Positions 12,296-63,729 of a stretch of DNA of 64,000 bases are shown here, piece by piece (positions within the stretch are counted from its first letter, which is position 1; each line of letters begins with the position of its first letter). The DNA lies in the NCBI GenBank assembly GCA_964460305.1, contig CAYWRA010000002.1:3089-67088 (forward strand), written 5' to 3'. Origin of the DNA: an uncultured bacterium (GTDB lineage Bacteria; Auribacterota; Tritonobacteria; UBA1439). A program made the translations under genes and the position numbers. Under the pieces are notes generated by a model. It worked only from the letters and a program-made list of their open reading frames with translations. It was not told where the DNA came from and did not search any database.

Positions 12296-12472
12296 GACTC
12301 TCCTAGGAGCCTGTCCGAGTAATGCCTAAAACAGCCTATTTTGGGTATTACTTAGACAGAGGCCAATTTTAGGCTTTGTAACCTATTGCATATGAGACAG
12401 TTGTAATGTTGATTTTTGTGTGTTGTCCAAGTAATAGGAAAAAATGTATTACTCAGACACTCTCCTAGAGAG
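12296..12472 (+). mobile_element. ~175-bp MITE-like element with two internal hairpins, copy 1
   Basis: The element begins with the palindromic CTCCTAGGAG. It contains the hairpins ctgtccgagtaat...attacttagacag and tgtccaagtaata...tattactcagaca. A reverse-complement copy lies at 60074-60245. Confidence 0.6.
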
Positions 12473-12550: not shown

Positions 12551-12652
12551 AGCCTGATCTATTCATCAACTTTGCTCGGTTGATGAATATCCTACCGTAG
12601 CGCAAATAGTCACGCAAAACTGCCACATTCCGCGCCAGACTAGTCGGTGCGG
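12551..12652 (+). repeat. Repeat family A, copy A2, with ccgcgccagactagtcggtgcgg palindromic extension
   Basis: agcctgatctattcatcaactttgctcggttgatgaatatcctaccgtagcgcaaatagtcacgcaaaactgccacattccgcgccagactagtcggtgcgg. Confidence 0.8.
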
Positions 12653-24773: not shown

Positions 24774-24873
24774 CCCGCACCGACTAGTCTGGTGCGGAAT
24801 GTTGGCAGTTTTGCATAACTATTTACGCTACAGTAAGTATTTATCGGCCGATCAAAGTTGATGAATAGATCAG
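24774..24873 (-). repeat. Repeat family A, copy A3 (reverse orientation)
   Basis: This is the reverse complement of the A2 copy, including the ccgcaccgactagtctggtgcgg palindrome. Confidence 0.8.
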
Positions 24874-25177
24874 GTTAACAGCCTTTGTGGTGAGGCTCGG
24901 CGTGAGATGCTTCGTCGTCCCACACAACGGGACTCCTCGCAATGACATGTGCAACATCTTCTGCTCCCCGTGATGCCTTTTTTCTCTTTTACTCTTTGTA
25001 AAGACAGGGGGTTCTTATAATCTGCGTTCATCCTCGGCAAATAACTTCTTCTCTGTGAATTCTCTCCATGCTCTCCGTGCCTCCGTGGTGAAATATGGAA
25101 GCCACAGTTCCCGTCCGCAAGAAACCGTTTTTGCCGCCCCAGCGGCCTTTGTGTTACAATCGCCGACAGGCAATGGA

Positions 25178-31739: not shown

Positions 31740-31818
31740 CAAAATTCAAATGACAAAACACAATGAGGTTTTGTCATCTTGCCATTTGTAATTCATTTGT
31801 CATTTGGTATTTGTCATT
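31726..31818 (+). repeat. Repeat family B (AAATGAC/GTCATTT heptamer arms with a gacaaaacacaatgaggttttgtc core hairpin), copy B2
   Basis: Other copies lie at 41704-41790, 46918-46985 (-), 49330-49420 and 53600-53690. A degenerate copy lies at 26868-26975. Confidence 0.8.
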
Positions 31819-31842
31819 GGGGATATAGATCGGGACAACGTC

Positions 31843-38902: not shown

Positions 38903-38978
38903 TAGCCCGATCTATTCATCAACTTTGATCGGCCGATAAATACTTACTGTAGCGCAAATAGTTAATCAAAATCGTCGC
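38903..38978 (+). repeat. Repeat family A, copy A4
   Basis: agcccgatctattcatcaactttgatcggccgataaatacttactgtagcgcaaatagttaatcaaaatcgtcgcatt. Confidence 0.8.
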
Positions 38979-41556: not shown

Positions 41557-41739
41557 GTTGTGGGAGCATTATAACACAACGTGCGCATGCGCCCGCCCGC
41601 GTTGGGAATTTGAACCATCTCTGGAAATGACGAATACCCCGCCTAACAACCGGCCTCGTCCCAAAGGGATCCCTTCGGGAAAGAGGCCCCTTTGGGGCGG
41701 GCAGGCAAATGACAAATGTCAAAACACAATGAGGTTTTG

Positions 41740-43344
41740 TCATTTGGTCATTTGTAATTCATTTGTCATTTGCGCTTTGGTATTTGTCATTATTTTGCCC
41801 CTGCACGCATCGCGATGCTGGACGAGCAGCGAATCGTCCAGGTATACCGGGTTCAGGCGCGCGGCCTTCTCATACGCCTCGATCGCCCTGCCGTACTCCC
41901 CCCTGGCCTCATAGACCATGCCGATGCCTATATACACGTTGGCCGAGTAAACGGCGTCGCGGGTCAGGCCCATCGCCCGATTGAATTCCCGGAGCGCCTC
42001 GTCATACCTGCCGGTCATGCGGTAGACGTTTGCAAGATTGTTGCGGGCGGAGGGAAAATCAGATCTGAGATTCACCGCCTGCATCAGCATCTCCTCCGCC
42101 TCCTCGTAACGGCCCCGTCGCATGTATACGATCCCAAGATTGTTGTAGGCATCGGCGCTTTCAGGGCTGTGTGCGATGACCGCCTCCCACAGCGTCGCGC
42201 TGTCACGCCAAACGGTATTCCGCGCCATCGTAAGGACGGCAAAAAGTGTGACGACCGCGCAGACAGCGGCAGCCCCCAGGCGGAAGCGAGGCCGCAGGAG
42301 ACCCGCCGCCGCGGCGTGCCCGCAGAGGAGACAAAGGGCGGCGCTTGGGAGATAGAGATACCGGTCGGCCTTTATCATGTTCACCGGGATGATCTGGAGC
42401 ACGGGTATGAGCGATACCGCGCCCCAGAAAAAGCAGAATGAGAACAGTCCCTTGCCCCGGCGCCTCGCGACCGCCGCAATGCACAGAGTAATTATCGCAA
42501 CAAGCGGGAAAAGGCACCGGATCTCCGTCGCCCGGGAGGGTAACTCCACCAGATAGAGAGAGGAGAGGTCGACGGGAAGGACAAGCATCCTGATGTAATC
42601 GCCCAGCACGACGCACATCGCGCGCATCGTGCCGTAGATGCTCCCGCCATGGTAGACAAAGCGCAAGTCTCTATGCGGATCCAGGAATATGGTGGCGATT
42701 GCGATGGGCAGAAGTGGCAGCGCGTAGGGGAACTTGTGCGGTATACTCCGCCCCAGGCCGATCCGCCGGCCATTACCGAGAACGTCGTATAGGATGAGCG
42801 CCAGAGGGAGTGTGATCATCAACGGTTTGGAACAGATGGTACAGAGGTAGAAACAGACGCTCAGGGAGAATAGCCCTCCCCCCCGTCTCTCCCGGCTTCG
42901 GACGTATGCCAGGAACGAGAGGAGATAAAAGAGCATTCCCAGGCCGTCCTTTCTGCTCGAGAGCCAGGCGACCGATTCCGCGTGCAACGGGTGTACCGCA
43001 AAGAGCGCCGCTGCCGCAAGGGCCGCCTCCACCTTGCCTATCATCTCTCCGCAGAGGAGGAAAAAGACGAGCACGACGAGCGCATAGATGAGCAGATCGG
43101 TTATGTGATACCCCACCGGGTTGAGTCTCCAGAAGAGATAATCGAGGCTATGGGAGATCACCGGCAGGGGGGGATAGCTTAAGTGATAATTCTTGATGAC
43201 GTGGGGGATGTCGAGCGTGCGGATGGCCTTGTTCCTGACGATGAGATGCTCATCGTCCCAATTGGTAAAATGATTGCCGAGAATGTTGGCGTAGACCACC
43301 AGTACCAGGGCAATCAGGCATAAAATCGCTATCCATGTCCTCAC
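41740..43344 (-). CDS. Polytopic membrane protein (PMT/TMTC-like glycosyltransferase fold) with C-terminal TPR repeats
   Basis: About 11 TM helices are predicted. The product has the TPR segments AEAYNNLGIVYMRRGRYEEAEEM and RNNLANVYRMTGRYDEA. The last ~15 codons read through a family B repeat. Confidence 0.5.
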   Translation of the reverse strand: MRTWIAILCLIALVLVVYANILGNHFTNWDDEHLIVRNKAIRTLDIPHVIKNYHLSYPPLPVISHSLDYLFWRLNPVGYHITDLLIYALVVLVFFLLCGEMIGKVEAALAAAALFAVHPLHAESVAWLSSRKDGLGMLFYLLSFLAYVRSRERRGGGLFSLSVCFYLCTICSKPLMITLPLALILYDVLGNGRRIGLGRSIPHKFPYALPLLPIAIATIFLDPHRDLRFVYHGGSIYGTMRAMCVVLGDYIRMLVLPVDLSSLYLVELPSRATEIRCLFPLVAIITLCIAAVARRRGKGLFSFCFFWGAVSLIPVLQIIPVNMIKADRYLYLPSAALCLLCGHAAAAGLLRPRFRLGAAAVCAVVTLFAVLTMARNTVWRDSATLWEAVIAHSPESADAYNNLGIVYMRRGRYEEAEEMLMQAVNLRSDFPSARNNLANVYRMTGRYDEALREFNRAMGLTRDAVYSANVYIGIGMVYEARGEYGRAIEAYEKAARLNPVYLDDSLLVQHRDACRGKIMTNTKAQMTNELQMTK

Positions 43345-47436: not shown

Positions 47437-47510
47437 AGCCTGATCTATTCATCAACTTTGATCGGCCGATAAATACTTGCTGTAGCGCAAATAGTTAATC
47501 AAAATTGTCA
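47437..47510 (+). repeat. Repeat family A, copy A5
   Basis: agcctgatctattcatcaactttgatcggccgataaatacttgctgtagcgcaaatagttaatcaaaattgtca. Confidence 0.8.
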
Positions 47511-48647: not shown

Positions 48648-48749
48648 CCCGCACCGACTAGTCTGGTGCGGAATGTTACAATGTTGATTAACTATTTGCG
48701 CTACAGTAAATATTTATCGGCCGATCAAAGTTGATGAATAGATCAGGCT
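48648..48749 (-). repeat. Repeat family A, copy A6 (reverse orientation, with the ccgcaccgactagtctggtgcgg palindrome)
   Basis: Together with A5, this is an inverted pair bracketing the rhodanese-DoxX pair. Confidence 0.8.
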
Positions 48750-49332: not shown

Positions 49333-49420
49333 TGACAATGTCAAATGACAGATGACAAAACACAATGAGTTTTTGTCATCGGGGCATTTGTAATTCATTT
49401 GTCATTGGGTATTTGTCATT
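49330..49420 (+). repeat. Repeat family B, copy B5
   Basis: aatgacaatgtcaaatgacagatgacaaaacacaatgagtttttgtcat...tttgtcattgggtatttgtcattt. Confidence 0.8.
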
Positions 49421-49429
49421 TATGCAACG

Positions 49430-52257: not shown

Positions 52258-53604
52258 ATGCGAAAGATCAAAATTCCAGCATGCATGCTAGTTTTTGTGA
52301 TGCTTCTTGTTGAGTCTCTACAGGCCGAGTGGGTCACGGACAAGAAGGTGGATGAGACGCTCAAACGCGTGGCGGCCTTCGCTCGCTGCGAGAAGGAACT
52401 CGCGACGTCAAAATCCGAAAGCCAGCGGCAGGCGCTCCGGGGACAGCTCGATCGGATGAAGAGAGATCTCACGCGCGAACGGATCGACTACGGGAGCTTC
52501 ATCGGCATCCGCGGCCAGGCTGAGGACATCCAGGGAGACTGGTTCTTCGATGGGCAGTGGATCGCGAACAGCGTCTACTGGAGGATATTCCGCCTCTTCA
52601 ACCTGCCGAGGAACCTGCGCCGCCTAGTGGGCCGTCCCGCTCGCGCGAGCGATCTGACGGCAAATGGCGGAATCCCCGACTCGGCGTTCTTCTTCAATAC
52701 CGACTTACGCGCCATCACGCCCGGCATCTTAAGGGAGCAGGACGAGGCCATACGCCCGCGCGGGAAAATCACGATCACACGCAAGAAGCAGGAGGGCCAG
52801 TCCAAGGGCTTCTATGGCATGGACAGCCGCGGCGTCGAGTACATCATTATCGTCGATCCGCCGGGGATGGAAGAGCAGGTCACGTCAGCGGAAGTGATCG
52901 GCTCCACGCTAATGCGGATGGCAGGCTATAACGTCGCCGGGAGCGCCATCGTCACGATAGAAGGGACTGCCAATCCCGAGTTCGACGGCCGGCGCGGAGT
53001 GGCCACGAAACTCGTCAAGGGGTATAAGGGCCACTGGACTTACCGCGCGTTCGAGGACCGGCGGGAGATGCGCGCGGGCATGGTCTTCGCCGCCTGGATC
53101 CACAACACCGACTGGCTGGACCACAACACCGGGATCAGCGTGATCGAGGTTGACGGAATCCCTCTCACCCGCTACTACGTCTTCGACTTCGGTGGATCGC
53201 TCGGTAGCTGGAACATACGCACCAAGGAGCCGCGGGACGGCTGGGAGCATTACGTCAGCTTCCACGAGTTTTTCCTCTGGCCGATTGCGCGTCCCCTCGA
53301 ACTTGCTGGGCTTGTCAGGAAACCGTACGCCGCCAGCGGCGCTCAGTACAGCGAGGCCGTGGGTTACTTCGACAGCAACTTCCGCCCTGACCGCTACAGG
53401 CCGAACTATCCTAACATGGCCTGGGCGGAGATGACGGCCGAGGACGGCCGCTGGGCCGCGGGCGTGATCGCCGGCTACAGCGAGGAGCAGATCCGGACCG
53501 CCGTGGATCTCGCCCGCTACACTCGCGCCGAGGACGCTGATTACGTATATAAGACGCTGCTCGCAAGACGGCAGAGGATACTGGATCATTATAACCCGAA
53601 ATGA
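52258..53604 (+). CDS. Secreted hypothetical protein with protein-kinase-like catalytic signature
   Basis: A signal peptide is present. The product has WIHNTDWLDHN (an HxD...N catalytic-loop-like motif), followed ~25 aa later by DFGGS (a DFG-like motif). Confidence 0.35.
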   Translation: MRKIKIPACMLVFVMLLVESLQAEWVTDKKVDETLKRVAAFARCEKELATSKSESQRQALRGQLDRMKRDLTRERIDYGSFIGIRGQAEDIQGDWFFDGQWIANSVYWRIFRLFNLPRNLRRLVGRPARASDLTANGGIPDSAFFFNTDLRAITPGILREQDEAIRPRGKITITRKKQEGQSKGFYGMDSRGVEYIIIVDPPGMEEQVTSAEVIGSTLMRMAGYNVAGSAIVTIEGTANPEFDGRRGVATKLVKGYKGHWTYRAFEDRREMRAGMVFAAWIHNTDWLDHNTGISVIEVDGIPLTRYYVFDFGGSLGSWNIRTKEPRDGWEHYVSFHEFFLWPIARPLELAGLVRKPYAASGAQYSEAVGYFDSNFRPDRYRPNYPNMAWAEMTAEDGRWAAGVIAGYSEEQIRTAVDLARYTRAEDADYVYKTLLARRQRILDHYNPK

Positions 53605-53690
53605 CAAATGACGAAACACTATGAGGTTTTGACATTTGGTCATTTGTAATTCATTTGTCATTTGTGCTTTGTCATTTGTCATTTGTCATT
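53600..53690 (+). repeat. Repeat family B, copy B6, with four tandem TGTCATT heptamers
   Basis: aatgacaaatgacgaaacactatgaggttttgacat...tttgtcatttgtgctttgtcatttgtcatttgtcatt. Confidence 0.8.
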
Positions 53691-59037: not shown

Positions 59038-60073
59038 GACTCACATTCTAACACATTCCGCCGCGGGCCTGGTCAGCGAGTAGGTCAAATTAGATTATTC
59101 AGTAATGGCTCTTGCCGGATTTTTGTGCATATGTTGATAGAGGGACAATGCGCAACATATTATCAGGGGAAGAAATATCACCGAGCATGCTCTCCACATC
59201 TCCTCTCCCCTCCGATGGGGAGAGGCTGGGTGAGGGGTGATTTGAAAAAGACTGCATCTACACCCTCACCCGATAATTGTGAAGGTGTGAAATATCAACA
59301 CACTGTCAATTGCGAGCGGGGCGAAGCAATCTCGCTTCCGAGCAGTTGCGCACCTGCCGATTGGAAAAGGGGGGCTTCCGGGACGGCTATGCAGTTTTAT
59401 CTTGCGCGCGTCAAGGAAGATGGGTTTGGCTTTTGATGTTTTATCCCGCCGCAGTTTTGCTTCGACTGCATTTCCTGCCTTCCGAGATTCGTAGAATGAT
59501 GCGGATAATAGTGCGTACTTTCGTGAATAGTGCCCCCCCGCTCCACCCTTAACCCGGATTATTCACCTGATGGTCAGGAACAAGTATTCATCTGATGCGT
59601 AAAGCATGTCATTCCGGCGCAAGCCGGAATACAGATCCATAAGCCTTGACGCTGGATCCCTGCTTCCGCAAGGATGACAGGTTGTGAGTTTGATAAATAG
59701 ATCAGTTTACGGATGCGCTATGCCCGTGGATAACTCAAACAAGCCCCTATAGGAACCAATCTCCGTTAGAAAGCCCTTCTTAAGGTCTAACCCACCGAAA
59801 GGCGTCTAATTCTTTGTTTTGCAAGCCATTACGCAGGTCCGCTCCCAATTTTAGGCATGCCCAACATCCATTTTATATGGATGAAATGTGGATGATTTTC
59901 GAGGGTTGTGAAAATCAGGTGGTTGTCGGATAATATTGGTTTTTCTGAACAAAGGGGGATTCGTCGTATCATTGGCACAACACTCCTTATCCTCAGTGCG
60001 GTAATCTTAAGAGAGGGTGTTATTTCGATTGTTGTTTTGCTTCACGATGCAATCCAAAGGTGTCGTACAGAAT

Positions 60074-60245
60074 CGCTAGGAGTGTGTCCGAGTAATACGT
60101 TTTTTTGCCATTACTCGGACAGCACACAAAAATGGCCCATGTAACAAACTGCCGTACAGCATATTGCAAACATCAAATTTTGACTCTGTCTGAGTAATAC
60201 CCAAAATAGGCTGGTTTTAGCATTTCTCGGACAGGCTCCTAGGGT
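60074..60245 (-). mobile_element. ~175-bp MITE-like element, copy 2 (reverse complement of 12296-12472)
   Basis: The arms gctaggagtgtgtccgagtaatacg...attactcggacag and gtctgagtaataccc...ctcggacaggctcctagg are shared with copy 1. Confidence 0.6.
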
Positions 60246-60363
60246 GACATAAAAGTTGTAAAGTAAACATCATCTACTGGGGCGAAAAGGCAAGGTTAAC
60301 TAAGTGGCCTCGCTGCCATTGTATTTGCAACTAACCACAACATCTATTGATGGAGGTTAAATC

Positions 60364-60945
60364 GTGAAAAAAAAAGAATGGATAAAACTAGAAAATAGAA
60401 AAGAAGTGGTTGACAAAGTTGCAGAAATGGTCAAAACCGCACAAAGTGAAGTATACATCATTGGCCATAGTGCAAGATGGTTGAAGGAAAAATCATTTCA
60501 GGAAGCTATGGAGAGTGCTCGGAATGTGGCTGATGCAAAATTTTTGATTACATGTCCCGAAGATATTACAGATGCTATCTTAATCTCTTTAAAAGAGTTA
60601 AAGCAAAAAGGCATTGTCGACAAAATATTAAAAAGATCTTATGGGCGTATGAGAATTTGTCTGGTCGACGGGCGCAAAATTTTATTAGCACACACCTTAG
60701 ATTATAAAGATAAGAAAGGCAACACTTCTTTTGGTTTATATTTTGAAGATGATAATTTTGGACATTGGTTGTCAACAAGATTCACCGAGCTAGCTCAGGA
60801 TGCATATGATATAGACGACAGCAAATTTATTATTATGATAAAAAGCATTTACTATTCCATTAGGGCTCATTGGCTCGAATGGATAATCATTGCGGCAATA
60901 GGTGCAGCATTATCAAGTGGTTTCTCCAGCTTATTCAAATTATGA
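60364..60945 (+). CDS. Low-GC island gene 1: uncharacterised protein with C-terminal TM anchor
   Basis: The ORF has a GTG start with a GGAGG ribosome-binding site. Its AT-rich codon usage contrasts with the rest of the window. The C-terminus is HWLEWIIIAAIGAALSSGFSSLF. It shares the pattern ...hIIxxSxxhL...GxxxhxLxxGRxxhL with island gene 2. Confidence 0.45.
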   Translation: MKKKEWIKLENRKEVVDKVAEMVKTAQSEVYIIGHSARWLKEKSFQEAMESARNVADAKFLITCPEDITDAILISLKELKQKGIVDKILKRSYGRMRICLVDGRKILLAHTLDYKDKKGNTSFGLYFEDDNFGHWLSTRFTELAQDAYDIDDSKFIIMIKSIYYSIRAHWLEWIIIAAIGAALSSGFSSLFKL

Positions 60946-60990
60946 AAAGTGAATAGATTATATCCAATGTGATAACCAGACGGTATTATC

Positions 60991-61554
60991 ATGAACTTAA
61001 AAATCATTAATAAAAAAAATACTATCTACTTGGATGCAATTGAAATCATAAAGAACAGCGAGAATAAACTTTTTATAATCGAAAGGAGTTCAAGCCTATT
61101 ATTAGGGGCGAGGAAAAATCCAATTGAAAAAAGCTATTTAACCTCACTAAGCAAATACATTCATGAATTACAAAATGGCTCCGGGAAGATGTTATTCTAC
61201 CTTTACAATTGCGTAGAAACGAAAGGCGAAATGTTCAAAAGAAACATTTCTTTTAACAAAGTCACTGATAATTTTTACAATCTTCAAAAAATACAGGAAA
61301 AGTGCGATGGAAGTTTCATAATAAAATCATTCAAAGAACCGGGTAATCCCTTGGTGATAGGAGACCGTGAGTTCAGCCTATGGTTATCCAATCCACTCGG
61401 CAATATTCTATGCATTAATATCGAAAATAAAAAATACACGGATGGTATTTTCGAATCATACAAACATTACGCGTTACATTTACCCACCAAGTCAATAGAA
61501 GCATTAACCTGTGAACTTAAACCTAAAGAAGCACATACGCATTTCTTTGATTAA
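60991..61554 (+). CDS. Low-GC island gene 2: uncharacterised soluble protein, distant paralogue of gene 1
   Basis: The ORF is AT-rich. The segments LFIIERSSSLLLG and PLVIGDREFSLWLSNP parallel gene 1. Confidence 0.45.
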   Translation: MNLKIINKKNTIYLDAIEIIKNSENKLFIIERSSSLLLGARKNPIEKSYLTSLSKYIHELQNGSGKMLFYLYNCVETKGEMFKRNISFNKVTDNFYNLQKIQEKCDGSFIIKSFKEPGNPLVIGDREFSLWLSNPLGNILCINIENKKYTDGIFESYKHYALHLPTKSIEALTCELKPKEAHTHFFD

Positions 61555-61605
61555 CTAAGAGCCATCCCTAAATGACGATAGTCCGCCTAAAAATAATCAA
61601 GGTAC

Positions 61606-62139
61606 ATGCCAACTCCAGAAAAAATGATCGACCTCAATGAACTAAACAGTGGTTTGCCTGCGATATCCCCTGCATTCGGAAGTTGTCTAGCTGAGGCGGG
61701 TGGCGTCTGCCTTGAATCTCAGGGCCATCAATTTGACAAGGAAATGTTGGTCCAAGGTACGCACCAGAAATCGTTCAGGCTCCGTTGGCCTCAGATCACG
61801 CAACAAGTGCTCAATTGTTGGAACGATCTTGAAAGCGCGACAGAACATGGCGCTATGGGCGTTGCTATTTTACTGATACGCAAACTCGCCGGTTATTCAG
61901 TAGTGCAACGTTCCCGCAAGGGGACGGGATTCGACTACTGGCTTGGACACGATGATGGCATTCCATTTCAAAATATGGCACGATTGGAGGTATCTGGCAT
62001 CCGTAAGGGAGACGAACGGACGATCAAGACAAGAGTCCGTCAAAAACTTAAGCAGGTCGCGAAGTCCGATGGCTCTCTTCCTGCATACATAGTGGTCGTC
62101 GAGTTCGGAACACCTATTTCAGAGGTAGCTGAGAAATGA
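61606..62139 (+). CDS. Island gene 3: uncharacterised protein with possible nuclease-like core
   Basis: The product has GFDYWLGHDDG...ARLEVSGIRKGDE, which loosely resembles a D...(D/E)xK-type signature. Its stop overlaps the gene 4 start (ATGA). Confidence 0.4.
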   Translation: MPTPEKMIDLNELNSGLPAISPAFGSCLAEAGGVCLESQGHQFDKEMLVQGTHQKSFRLRWPQITQQVLNCWNDLESATEHGAMGVAILLIRKLAGYSVVQRSRKGTGFDYWLGHDDGIPFQNMARLEVSGIRKGDERTIKTRVRQKLKQVAKSDGSLPAYIVVVEFGTPISEVAEK

Positions 62140-63251
62140 CCTTGCTCCAAGAACTACACAACGAGGCGATGAATTTTGCCGAGCTCGCCGTCTCTGAGCG
62201 CATCCGGGGGAAATATGACCATGCCGAAACCTTATTTCGCTCAGCACTTGAGAAGGAGCTCGCCGCAGTTAAAGCTTGCTCTGACCTTGGCAATCCCGAG
62301 CCGACGTTTTCAGTACTTCATCGCAGTGCTGCAACGCTGGCACTTGACTGTGGAAACCCGCGATTAGCAGAGCAATTGGCAACACGTGCTCTTTCCGCCA
62401 CTCCCCCACCAGAGATGGCCGACGAATTACGGGACCTTCTAGAAACGATCAACTTCCAAAGGCATTTGCAATTACGCGGCGTCTCACTCTCCGACGACGA
62501 ACTCCAAATGTCCATCGCTGGGAACGCGGTGGGATTCGGGATGGTTCACGGCAATGAATTTCTTGAGCGAATTAGCCATGCATCGAAGATCTTCTATCGC
62601 ATCGTGGAACGGAGGGAGCGAAAGCCGTTCCGGGAGAAGGGCCGATTGAAAAAAGGAGTGAAAGATGAGTACGAGCTTTACATGTCCGTACCGCGCGCAG
62701 CTAGCTTCGCTGTAACACTCAAAGTTGGAAGGCCAACTGGGCAGATGAAAAGCGCCGGACTCCTAGGGACGACGGACATCATTGACGAATTCATGAGCCT
62801 GATCGACTTGGTTAACCGTAAAAAGGAAGAGGAGATCCACAAGCGCATCGGGGATCAAGCTTACTACAGGAATTTTATCGCGCTCTCGCGCCTCCTAGCT
62901 CCTGACGGAGAGAATGTCAATCTTGTCGGCTTCACGACATTCCGGGGGAATAAAGAGGTTCGCATCTCGATGACGCGATCCCGAGATGAGATTCCTCCTC
63001 CAAAACCTCCTGCAACCGAGGAGTTGACCAATGTTGTCACAGTCGAAGGGCAGCTCCTCTTTGCTGACGCAACACATGGTAGAAGCGGAGAAATCAAAGT
63101 TGTAAACGAGGCAAGTAATGCATCCTACCTCGTCAAGGTCCCAGAAGGAATGATGGCGGACATTGTGAAGCCACTGTGGGGTTCAAAGGTGATAGTTTCG
63201 GGGGTGCAACACGGGCGCCATATCGAACTAGAAGATATCCGTGAAACATGA
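62136..63251 (+). CDS. Island gene 4: uncharacterised protein (helical N-terminal half, beta-rich C-terminal half)
   Basis: The ORF is translationally coupled to gene 3. No motif was recognised. Confidence 0.4.
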   Translation: MTLLQELHNEAMNFAELAVSERIRGKYDHAETLFRSALEKELAAVKACSDLGNPEPTFSVLHRSAATLALDCGNPRLAEQLATRALSATPPPEMADELRDLLETINFQRHLQLRGVSLSDDELQMSIAGNAVGFGMVHGNEFLERISHASKIFYRIVERRERKPFREKGRLKKGVKDEYELYMSVPRAASFAVTLKVGRPTGQMKSAGLLGTTDIIDEFMSLIDLVNRKKEEEIHKRIGDQAYYRNFIALSRLLAPDGENVNLVGFTTFRGNKEVRISMTRSRDEIPPPKPPATEELTNVVTVEGQLLFADATHGRSGEIKVVNEASNASYLVKVPEGMMADIVKPLWGSKVIVSGVQHGRHIELEDIRET

Positions 63252-63729
63252 GATCGATGATCCCCCATATAGACGACAATCAAGAGTAAAGATACGATAC
63301 CTGTCGGGCAACCCTCTCCATTCCCTTGTTTAGCATACTACGCTACGCATCTCACCAGCCGGGCTCAGTATTCCAAGAAGCACTGGATTTCAACCTACCA
63401 GCCATCGGTTGCCTTGACCTTGATATTCCATTCTGGAACATCAAGATGAGGCGGTACTCGCAAGGCACCGCGCGTATTTACTGCGAGCCTCTTTTACTCT
63501 TTGTAAAACAACCGGGAGCCTGTTGAAGGATATTAATGCCTACAATCATGAGATGGATAATTCCGGTTTGGAACAGCAAATTCCACAACTTGAGGTGCCG
63601 CATCGGATTCCATACGGAGCCATAAACTTCCGTCGTAAACAACCGCATCAAGTCAGACCGGCGTCTGGCAGAAGCGATAGAGTACGTAGCAACCAGAAAT
63701 TCGACCGGAAATTAATCGCAATCCTCTCT

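Follow-up and report, generated by a model that had tools for sequence, protein, structure and literature searches.

In Hachiman, which consists of the PD-(D/E)xK nuclease HamA and the helicase HamB, and in PARIS (AriA-AriB), the nuclease is an effector that a larger sensor keeps sequestered. Phages can carry substitutes for antitoxins: RnlA-RnlB and LsoA-LsoB are countered by Dmd of phage T4, and ToxIN by a pseudo-ToxI. Toxins of the RnlA/LsoA/ToxIN type are RNases of the HEPN or Abi kind, and Dmd has no homology to the antitoxin. New candidate defence cassettes are common. Here we describe four genes, g1 to g4, carried by a low-GC island at the right end of a 64,000-nt stretch of DNA, hereafter the window, from an uncultured bacterium of the Auribacterota (Tritonobacteria, UBA1439; assembly GCA_964460305.1, contig CAYWRA010000002.1). 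The island consists of two independent two-gene cassettes, g1-g2 and g3-g4, that are unrelated to each other, and both correspond to uncharacterised protein families in a familiar two-gene conflict architecture. Our preferred reading, held with moderate confidence, is that two conflict cassettes were acquired separately: g3-g4 would be a gated nuclease for which phages carry mimics of the g4 N-terminal domain (N-domain), and g1-g2 a sensor with a membrane effector. The coordinates of the features are collected in table 1.

The four plus-strand open reading frames (ORFs) called in the original prediction (60364-63251) are all present and, as each of them has homologues elsewhere, we consider them real genes. 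When 185,579 species genomes were scanned by pattern, 79 loci encoding g4 relatives were identified in more than 15 phyla; the 163 confirmed stretches obtained among these species representatives are a minimum, since the scan relies on two peptide patterns. A g3 homologue is located directly upstream of the g4 relative in 78 of the 79 loci, and a g1 or g2 homologue in none of them. All-against-all clustering of the 1,518 neighbouring ORFs showed no third conserved neighbour of g3-g4, the maximum being 8 of 79 loci. For g1, one homologue was detectable among 5.8 billion clusters, located at a contig end, and an exhaustive HMMER search gave two close homologues of g2. Directly upstream of each of the latter (contigs L088 and L089) lies a g1 homologue, with 39% and 32% identity, respectively. 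No g3-g4 pair is visible near these homologues on the recovered DNA (for L088, 1.7 kb; for L089, 7.3 kb out of the 10 kb of the contig). Given these opposite distributions, g1-g2 is a rare conserved pair and g3-g4 a common pair, and this island is the only place where the two adjoin. The proposal of one tightly organised four-gene system is contradicted by these counts and by the GC contrast between the pairs.

This contrast amounts to about 17 points (0.32–0.35 for g1-g2 vs. 0.49–0.52 for g3-g4). Compared with the 44 ORFs left of 59040 (GC 0.573 +/- 0.037; GC at third codon positions, GC3, 0.69 +/- 0.08), g1 (0.35, z = -6.0) and g2 (0.32, z = -6.7) deviate strongly, and g3 (0.49, z = -2.1; GC3 z = -2.7) and g4 (0.52, z = -1.4) to a lesser degree. 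The right end of the window is compositionally foreign DNA. The drop in GC first seen by eye was thus real, but its value of about 40% is the mean of two compositional classes. The four proteins match no family above threshold in Pfam, NCBIfam, PADLOC, or PHROGs, as the original prediction had anticipated in finding no family to name. Sequence searches of the PDB with g1, g2, and the profiles A1, A3, and A4 gave nothing meaningful; matches to IsdI, PAT1, and sigma-70 (E 0.01–0.1) were judged to be due to chance.

The g3 family is well conserved (mean column identity 57%), and residues E80, D110, E128, S130, R133, K147, and Q150 are invariant across phyla. The AlphaFold2 model of g3 is confident, with a predicted local distance difference test score (pLDDT) of 89.4, and contains the alpha-beta-beta-beta-alpha-beta core of the restriction-endonuclease-like superfamily; the best-matching structures are those of an alkaline exonuclease and of Holliday-junction resolvases. 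The canonical motif positions are occupied by E80, which belongs to the first core helix, by D110, with which strand 2 begins, and by E128, which falls in strand 3. The model therefore supports the nuclease-like core that had been proposed, but the motif reads D110...E128-x-S130 and not D...ExxK, with an invariant serine at the lysine position of (D/E)xK. The nearby R133, K147, and Q150 could replace this lysine, and the modelled structure suggests that g3 is probably an active but non-canonical nuclease. Nearly all g3 homologues begin at the equivalent of Met7 (MLDLNDL...; window 61606-61626), so that translation possibly begins at the ATG at 61624 and not at 61606. In contig L001, which comes from another sample, nine positions depart from the window sequence; four of them fall within 18 bp of the g3 catalytic strand (61916-61933), resulting in R104L, G108stop, and D110Y. 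As all nine changes are G>T or C>A and four are so clustered, this nonsense allele of g3 was treated as probable sequencing damage of an oxidative type and not as a biological knock-out.

The g3 and g4 genes overlap by the ATGA noted in the original prediction, and a 4-nt start/stop overlap (ATGA, GTGA, or TTGA) is found in 58 of 70 homologous loci, an arrangement that points to a translationally coupled two-gene operon. The g4 model (pLDDT 80) comprises three domains. The N-domain forms a helical-hairpin repeat structure, but remains below threshold with tetratricopeptide repeat (TPR) sequence profiles (best TPR_14, 17.7 bits vs. a cutoff of 23.5). The middle domain harbors an invariant PRAASF loop at residues 186–191, modelled at low confidence. 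In the C-terminal barrel, the order b1-b2-b3-helix-b4-b5 would fit an OB-fold; Foldseek ranks SilF/CusF (E 9e-3, with a target TM of 0.6), PolD, eIF5A, and the N-domain of LysRS highest, all of them weak matches (E at least 9e-3). Structure searches thus gave a restriction-endonuclease-like fold for g3 and, at weak E values, an OB-like barrel for g4, but no sequence or structural match in any search for the g4 middle domain. No helix-turn-helix (HTH), ribbon-helix-helix, or AbrB domain was detected in g3 or g4 with Pfam and NCBIfam, so that the feature of a classic autoregulating type II antitoxin is missing. A literature keyword search returned no relevant two-gene system combining a nuclease, a TPR, and an OB domain. 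Like Hachiman and PARIS, the cassette has a small nuclease-fold gene followed by a larger partner, and we propose for it a similar hold-and-release logic. Unlike in these systems, g4 has no helicase or ATPase, the g3 motif is ExS and not ExK, and no PADLOC model matches; we regard the likeness as one of logic and not of family membership.

More than 900 homologues were found for each of the two proteins. The hosts of the 79 loci with g4 relatives include Brocadiaceae, Thermodesulfobacteriota, Syntrophus, Eisenbacteria, Chlorobiaceae, Omnitrophota, Acidobacteriota, Latescibacterota, Nitrospirota, many Dehalococcoidia, Alphaproteobacteria, Planctomycetota, and Bacteroidota, and one cultured carrier is Herpetosiphon aurantiacus DSM 785. 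Identity is alike, 51–57%, to the homologues of the Brocadiaceae, Thermodesulfobacteriota, Syntrophus, Eisenbacteria, Chlorobiaceae, Omnitrophota, and Acidobacteria. The pair is also found on plasmids and on 12 viral contigs. Taken together, these sequence data indicate a widespread, patchy, and horizontally mobile operon. At one locus (L062:8737-16187), three g4 homologues and one g3 occur together, and another (L069:8509-11110) carries two g3-g4 pairs, one of them truncated.

Four plasmids carry short forms of the g4 partner. On pANACY.01 of Anabaena cylindrica, an intact g3 homologue (53% identity) is followed, after a 4-nt overlap, by a 127-aa protein reduced to the N-domain. On Hymenobacter radiodurans plasmid NZ_CP037921.1 (L086:3471-4906), g3 (39% identity) precedes a 301-aa fusion of the N-domain to a Bac_transf sugar-transferase domain (PF02397, E 3e-52), with a KAP-family NTPase adjoining; the arrangement reflects either an exchanged effector or a chance gene fusion. 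A Leptolyngbya plasmid holds an intact N-domain ORF beside a g3 pseudogene with an in-frame stop, and an Aphanizomenonaceae plasmid an N-domain fragment alone, beside a Tn3 transposase and an integrase. Pseudogene patterns across metagenome-assembled genomes were left out of the evidence, because many of these assemblies are long-read and prone to indels. The N-domain is the constant companion of g3 and, in the manner of antitoxins, also outlasts its decay. A 1123-aa hypothetical protein encoded near the short pair of pANACY.01 (L084:6340-9711) scores weakly against PF05183, a family of eukaryotic-type RNA-dependent RNA polymerases (26.4 bits vs. a cutoff of 23.8, E 3.5e-6).

A profile search with the N-domain gave 19 viral contigs: 12 encode the full pair and seven a 105- to 130-aa ORF consisting of the N-domain only, without g3. 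These seven contigs vary in GC from 0.29 to 0.62, and their N-domain sequences are clearly different. Phage hallmark genes adjoin the ORF in five of the seven and include those for a virion structural protein and endolysin, RecT, DNA helicases, and terminase and portal; in one of these neighbourhoods, a DnaB-like helicase lies with a DNA methyltransferase. One phage ORF is 81% identical to residues 1–112 of a bacterial g4 and ends at the domain boundary, which suggests a recent capture of the N-domain alone. The INPHARED phage collection contains no g3 or g4 match. As with RnlAB, LsoAB, and ToxIN, a coupled two-gene cassette would be opposed by a free neutralising element that phages carry, here putatively on seven viral contigs. 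Unlike Dmd, the phage protein is a true homologue, with up to 81% identity, of one g4 domain; its neutralising role is proposed by analogy.

Table 1. Positions of the island, its genes and domains in the window, and of the N-domain-only ORFs on viral contigs.
Feature	Position	Strand	Remarks
Low-GC island	about 59040-63729		four + strand genes in two pairs
Leader, non-coding	59040..60363	.	GC 0.46, no convincing ORF
MITE-like element, ~169 bp	about 60076-60244	.	terminal inverted repeats, second copy in window
g1, 193 aa	60364..60945	+	GTG start, GGAGG Shine-Dalgarno; putative soluble alpha/beta domain and C-terminal anchor
g2, 187 aa	60991..61554	+	standalone copy of C-terminal domain of larger proteins
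g3, 177 aa	61606..62139	+	restriction-endonuclease-like PD-(D/E)xK fold
g4 (62136-63251), N-domain, residues 1-114	62136..62477	+	TPR-like helical; kept in every partner variant
g4, middle domain, residues about 120-280	62493..62975	+	alpha/beta, from model
g4, C-terminal small beta-barrel, residues 299-371 then stop	63030..63251	+	OB-fold-like
Right-hand spacer	63252..63729	.	GC 0.48; ends at stop of - strand 620-aa gene
Phage N-domain ORF	L094:5000-5350		
Phage N-domain ORF	L105:1247-1606		
Phage N-domain ORF	L107:5986-6324		
Phage N-domain ORF	L110:5983-6327		
Phage N-domain ORF	L111:6001-6351		
Phage N-domain ORF	L112:1195-1587		
Phage N-domain ORF	L113:5745-6062		

The g1 protein ends in a hydrophobic segment (residues 173–191, Kyte-Doolittle 1.76), conserved in one homologue, in agreement with the C-terminal transmembrane anchor predicted at first. 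Its residues 10–142 align to positions 6–126 of the TrmB C-terminal family PF11495 (E 2e-4; 21.0 bits vs. a cutoff of 22.2), a match present in two of the four g1-family members. Compared with TrmB, g1 lacks the N-terminal winged-helix DNA-binding domain and ends in a membrane anchor. The g2 protein matches the C-terminal ~150–180 residues of 250- to 470-aa proteins (E 1e-10 to 1e-3). Ten of these homologues were scanned with Pfam: four carry an N-terminal DUF4062, one a CAP12/Pycsar-type TIR domain (PF10137), and one PNP_UDP_1; the remaining four, including the two close ones, have no Pfam match. In another six homologues, the N-terminus carries one or two transmembrane helices instead. A domain that combines in this way with different effectors is typically a sensor module. 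The g2 domain itself has no relative in Pfam or the PDB, and DUF4062 was found only in remote relatives and not in g1 or g2. That g1 and g2 are distant paralogues, as originally suggested, is plausible but not secure: comparison of the g1-family and g2-domain profiles with hhalign gave a probability of 57% and an E value of 1e-4 over 140 colinear columns, and the single-sequence comparison was insignificant (BLASTP E 0.15). Identification of g1 or g2 as bacterial STING, CARF, or SAVED proteins found no profile support.

As experiments described in preprints of 2026 show, DUF4062 is a TIR-like NADase of single-protein anti-phage systems that act by abortive infection, of which Swarozyc, Evangelion, and NIR need a C-terminal auxiliary region for defence; that of Swarozyc binds the phage portal, and the trigger of Evangelion was not identified (bioRxiv 10.64898/2026.05.01.722283, 10.64898/2026.06.25.731849). 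As in Swarozyc and Evangelion, the g2 domain occupies the C-terminal position of 310- to 340-aa DUF4062 proteins; unlike them, g1 and g2 have no DUF4062, TIR, or PNP domain and are two genes instead of one. The sequence relationship suggests that g1-g2 is tied to DUF4062-type defence proteins through this non-catalytic C-terminal domain alone.

These observations can be assembled into a mechanism. The g3 protein would be a small PD-(D/E)xK-fold nuclease acting as effector or toxin, which the TPR-like N-domain of g4 would bind and restrain. The middle and OB-like C-terminal domains of g4 would sense a trigger, possibly a nucleic acid, and infection or another stress would lift the restraint, allowing g3 to cut nucleic acid according to an abortive-infection or toxin-antitoxin logic. 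Phages might counter this by free copies of the N-domain, as mimics that keep g3 silenced. The products of g1 and g2 may be distantly related sensor-type domains, homologous to the C-terminal region of DUF4062, TIR, PNP, and transmembrane immune effectors, and the pair is probably made up of a sensor (soluble g2) and a membrane effector (anchored g1). The specific assignment of g2 as soluble sensor and of g1 as its related membrane-anchored effector or co-sensor is made by analogy and with low confidence. The data establish the pairing and distribution of the genes, the folds and their conserved residues, the domain architectures, and the N-domain copies in phages; we infer that g3 is active as a nuclease, that the N-domain binds it, that a trigger is sensed, that the system acts against phages, and that the phage copies are mimics. 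Tentatively, g3-g4 may be an undescribed and widespread anti-phage system, a TPR/OB-gated nuclease evaded by phage domain capture, and g1-g2 a split, membrane-acting relative of the DUF4062/TIR/PNP proteins; we consider this possible but somewhat doubtful.

The idea of an acquired conflict module put forward in the original prediction is thus retained in part: the DNA is foreign, synteny breaks at the island edge, and the content is of conflict type, but the association with defence genes is modest. The content fits in that the g2 domain occurs on DUF4062, TIR, PNP, and transmembrane proteins, and in that g3-g4 is carried by plasmids and viral contigs and its N-domain copied by phages. Several points weigh against two conflict cassettes with a gated nuclease. 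Genes for restriction-modification (R-M), type ISP, DISARM-like (Eco57I-methylase and SNF2-PLD), or DUF1156/DUF499 systems are located less than 10 kb away in 16 of 75 loci, a raw count and a lower bound, as only recurrent clusters were annotated; this 21% falls far short of what is customarily required of a defence family. Among the nearest neighbours (n = 141), only seven are N6_Mtase (type I R-M methylases), the rest being heterogeneous and mostly housekeeping genes such as those for alanyl-tRNA synthetase, aconitase, and aldolase. Such a context fits a selfish cassette inserting anywhere, and guilt by association for defence is weak. No system component model of PADLOC-DB 2.0.0 matches, the only hit being a chance-level CARF match for g2 (E 0.028, 12 bits). 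Of the four short forms on plasmids, two belong to loci in visible decay, the phage N-domain genes could serve another function or be remnants, and the hold of the N-domain on g3 is a step that we infer. Regarding g1-g2, g1 scores below the gathering cutoff of PF11495 and has no HTH, unlike a TrmB-family regulator. In KpSwz, a 326-aa protein, the auxiliary domain (PDB 10wc) binds the phage portal, but at the sequence level it has no similarity to the g2 domain, and homology between the two finds no support there.

Some of the same facts suit a plain type II-like toxin-antitoxin addiction cassette, with g3 as toxin and the g4 N-domain as antitoxin and no dedicated anti-phage role. Insertions scattered among housekeeping genes, a coupled two-gene operon, plasmid copies and multiple copies per genome would all be expected of it, as would decayed loci in which the N-domain persists and g3 is missing or damaged. 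However, g4 is far larger than a usual antitoxin, has two extra conserved domains and no detected HTH, and phage copies of the N-domain are better explained by phage-host conflict; we consider this explanation unlikely. The roles might also be reversed, g3 being a non-catalytic sensor or adaptor of restriction-endonuclease fold and the variable C-terminus of the g4-type partner the effector. The ExS in place of ExK in g3 and the exchangeable C-terminus of its partner (OB-like barrel, none, or Bac_transf) would agree with this, but E80, D110, and E128 are invariant across phyla, N-domain-only partners carry no effector, and the single exchanged C-terminus is possibly an accidental fusion, making the reversal distinctly unlikely. 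An accessory DNA repair or recombination factor, in which a lambda-Exo/Hjc-like nuclease would work with an OB-fold partner binding single-stranded DNA, would account for the alkaline exonuclease and Holliday-junction resolvases among the structural neighbours of g3 and for the OB-like barrel of g4. It is improbable for a pair that is rare and patchy (at least 163 stretches among the 185,579 species representatives), has no conserved genomic context, and is carried by plasmids and viruses with N-domain copies in phages. Finally, the four genes lie on the same strand with gaps of 45 and 51 nt and no terminator-like site between g2 and g3, and may be co-transcribed here, but a single acquired four-component defence or addiction system is very improbable given 0 of 79 g3-g4 loci with g1 or g2, no g3-g4 on the DNA recovered around the g1-g2 homologues, and the strong GC difference between the pairs.

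The borders of the island were analyzed by comparison with other contigs. Three metagenome contigs of PRJEB14718 (a trench-water site) hold exact copies of the island. The only relative found for border comparison, L090, encodes a polyprenyl synthase and a DUF6263-like protein at 62–77% protein identity, with synteny kept to 59037 and total divergence beyond. At the exact island start, L090 carries a 335-aa ORF (L090:8959-9966) whose N-terminus reads, by eye, as an IS200/RayT-like Y1 transposase, followed by a run of further ORFs in place of the island. L090 was rejected as a clean empty site, as the right-flank gene is also missing there, and indicates a synteny break or variable junction only. 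On the right, the island is flanked by the minus-strand gene of a 620-aa repeat-rich secreted protein (GC 0.54) that runs beyond the window. Contig L002 extends ~2.6 kb rightward of the window and contains this gene and a fragment that is NifS-like by eye. From this extension, the limits given in table 1 were deduced. The right border could thus be followed as had been suggested, but no integrase-like ORF was noticed in these 2.6 kb, where ORFs were read by eye without a family-library scan, and a tRNA search of the 64-kb window found none.

The ~1.3-kb non-coding stretch described at first, with its copy of a miniature inverted-repeat transposable element (MITE)-like repeat, was confirmed. 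The leader (59040-60363) gave no Rfam match, even at E 0.1, and no match to plasmid DNA. The MITE-like copies at 60073-60243 and 12302-12471 (opposite strand) are 78% identical over 175 columns (E 5e-30), have terminal inverted repeats CTAGGAG..GTC.GAG / CTCGGACAGGCTCCTAG, and their similarity ends at the element borders; as single-stranded DNA, the element folds at -33.3 kcal/mol (z = -5.4 vs. shuffles). As the second copy sits in ordinary host DNA, it is a resident host repeat; it says nothing about island arrival or mobility and is not the acquisition footprint that it had been taken for. Hexamers TTGACT-16-CAAAAT, a consensus match only, are present inside the element (60180-60207), ~160 nt upstream of g1. 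From its sequence, the repeat might supply or alter g1-g2 transcription.

The window contains a single Rfam match, a cobalamin riboswitch (RF00174; 44970-45216, minus strand, 57 bits, E 1.5e-11). Four intergenic copies of an 85-nt repeat with many AAATGACAAATG motifs share 80–92% identity (31741-31825, 41707-41791, 49343-49427, and 53599-53683). A 25-nt core, GATCAAAGTTGATGAATAGATCAGG, occurs six times with at most one mismatch, none being expected by chance, within 40- to 86-nt repeats (2769-2793, 12553-12577, 24850-24874, 38906-38930, 47439-47463, and 48723-48747); about 80 nt separate the copy at 12553 from the second MITE-like element (12302-12471).

If the reading of g3-g4 as a gated nuclease cassette is true, the pair adds a common defence or toxin-antitoxin family. 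It is common in the Chloroflexota, Latescibacterota, Acidobacteriota, and Thermodesulfobacteriota, phyla poorly covered by Escherichia coli-centred screens. The seven phage copies of one domain would then be candidate counter-defence genes, whose mechanism is directly testable. The g2 domain, for its part, would link a rare gene pair to the DUF4062 NADase defence proteins of 2026 and may define a sensor module shared by at least four effector types.

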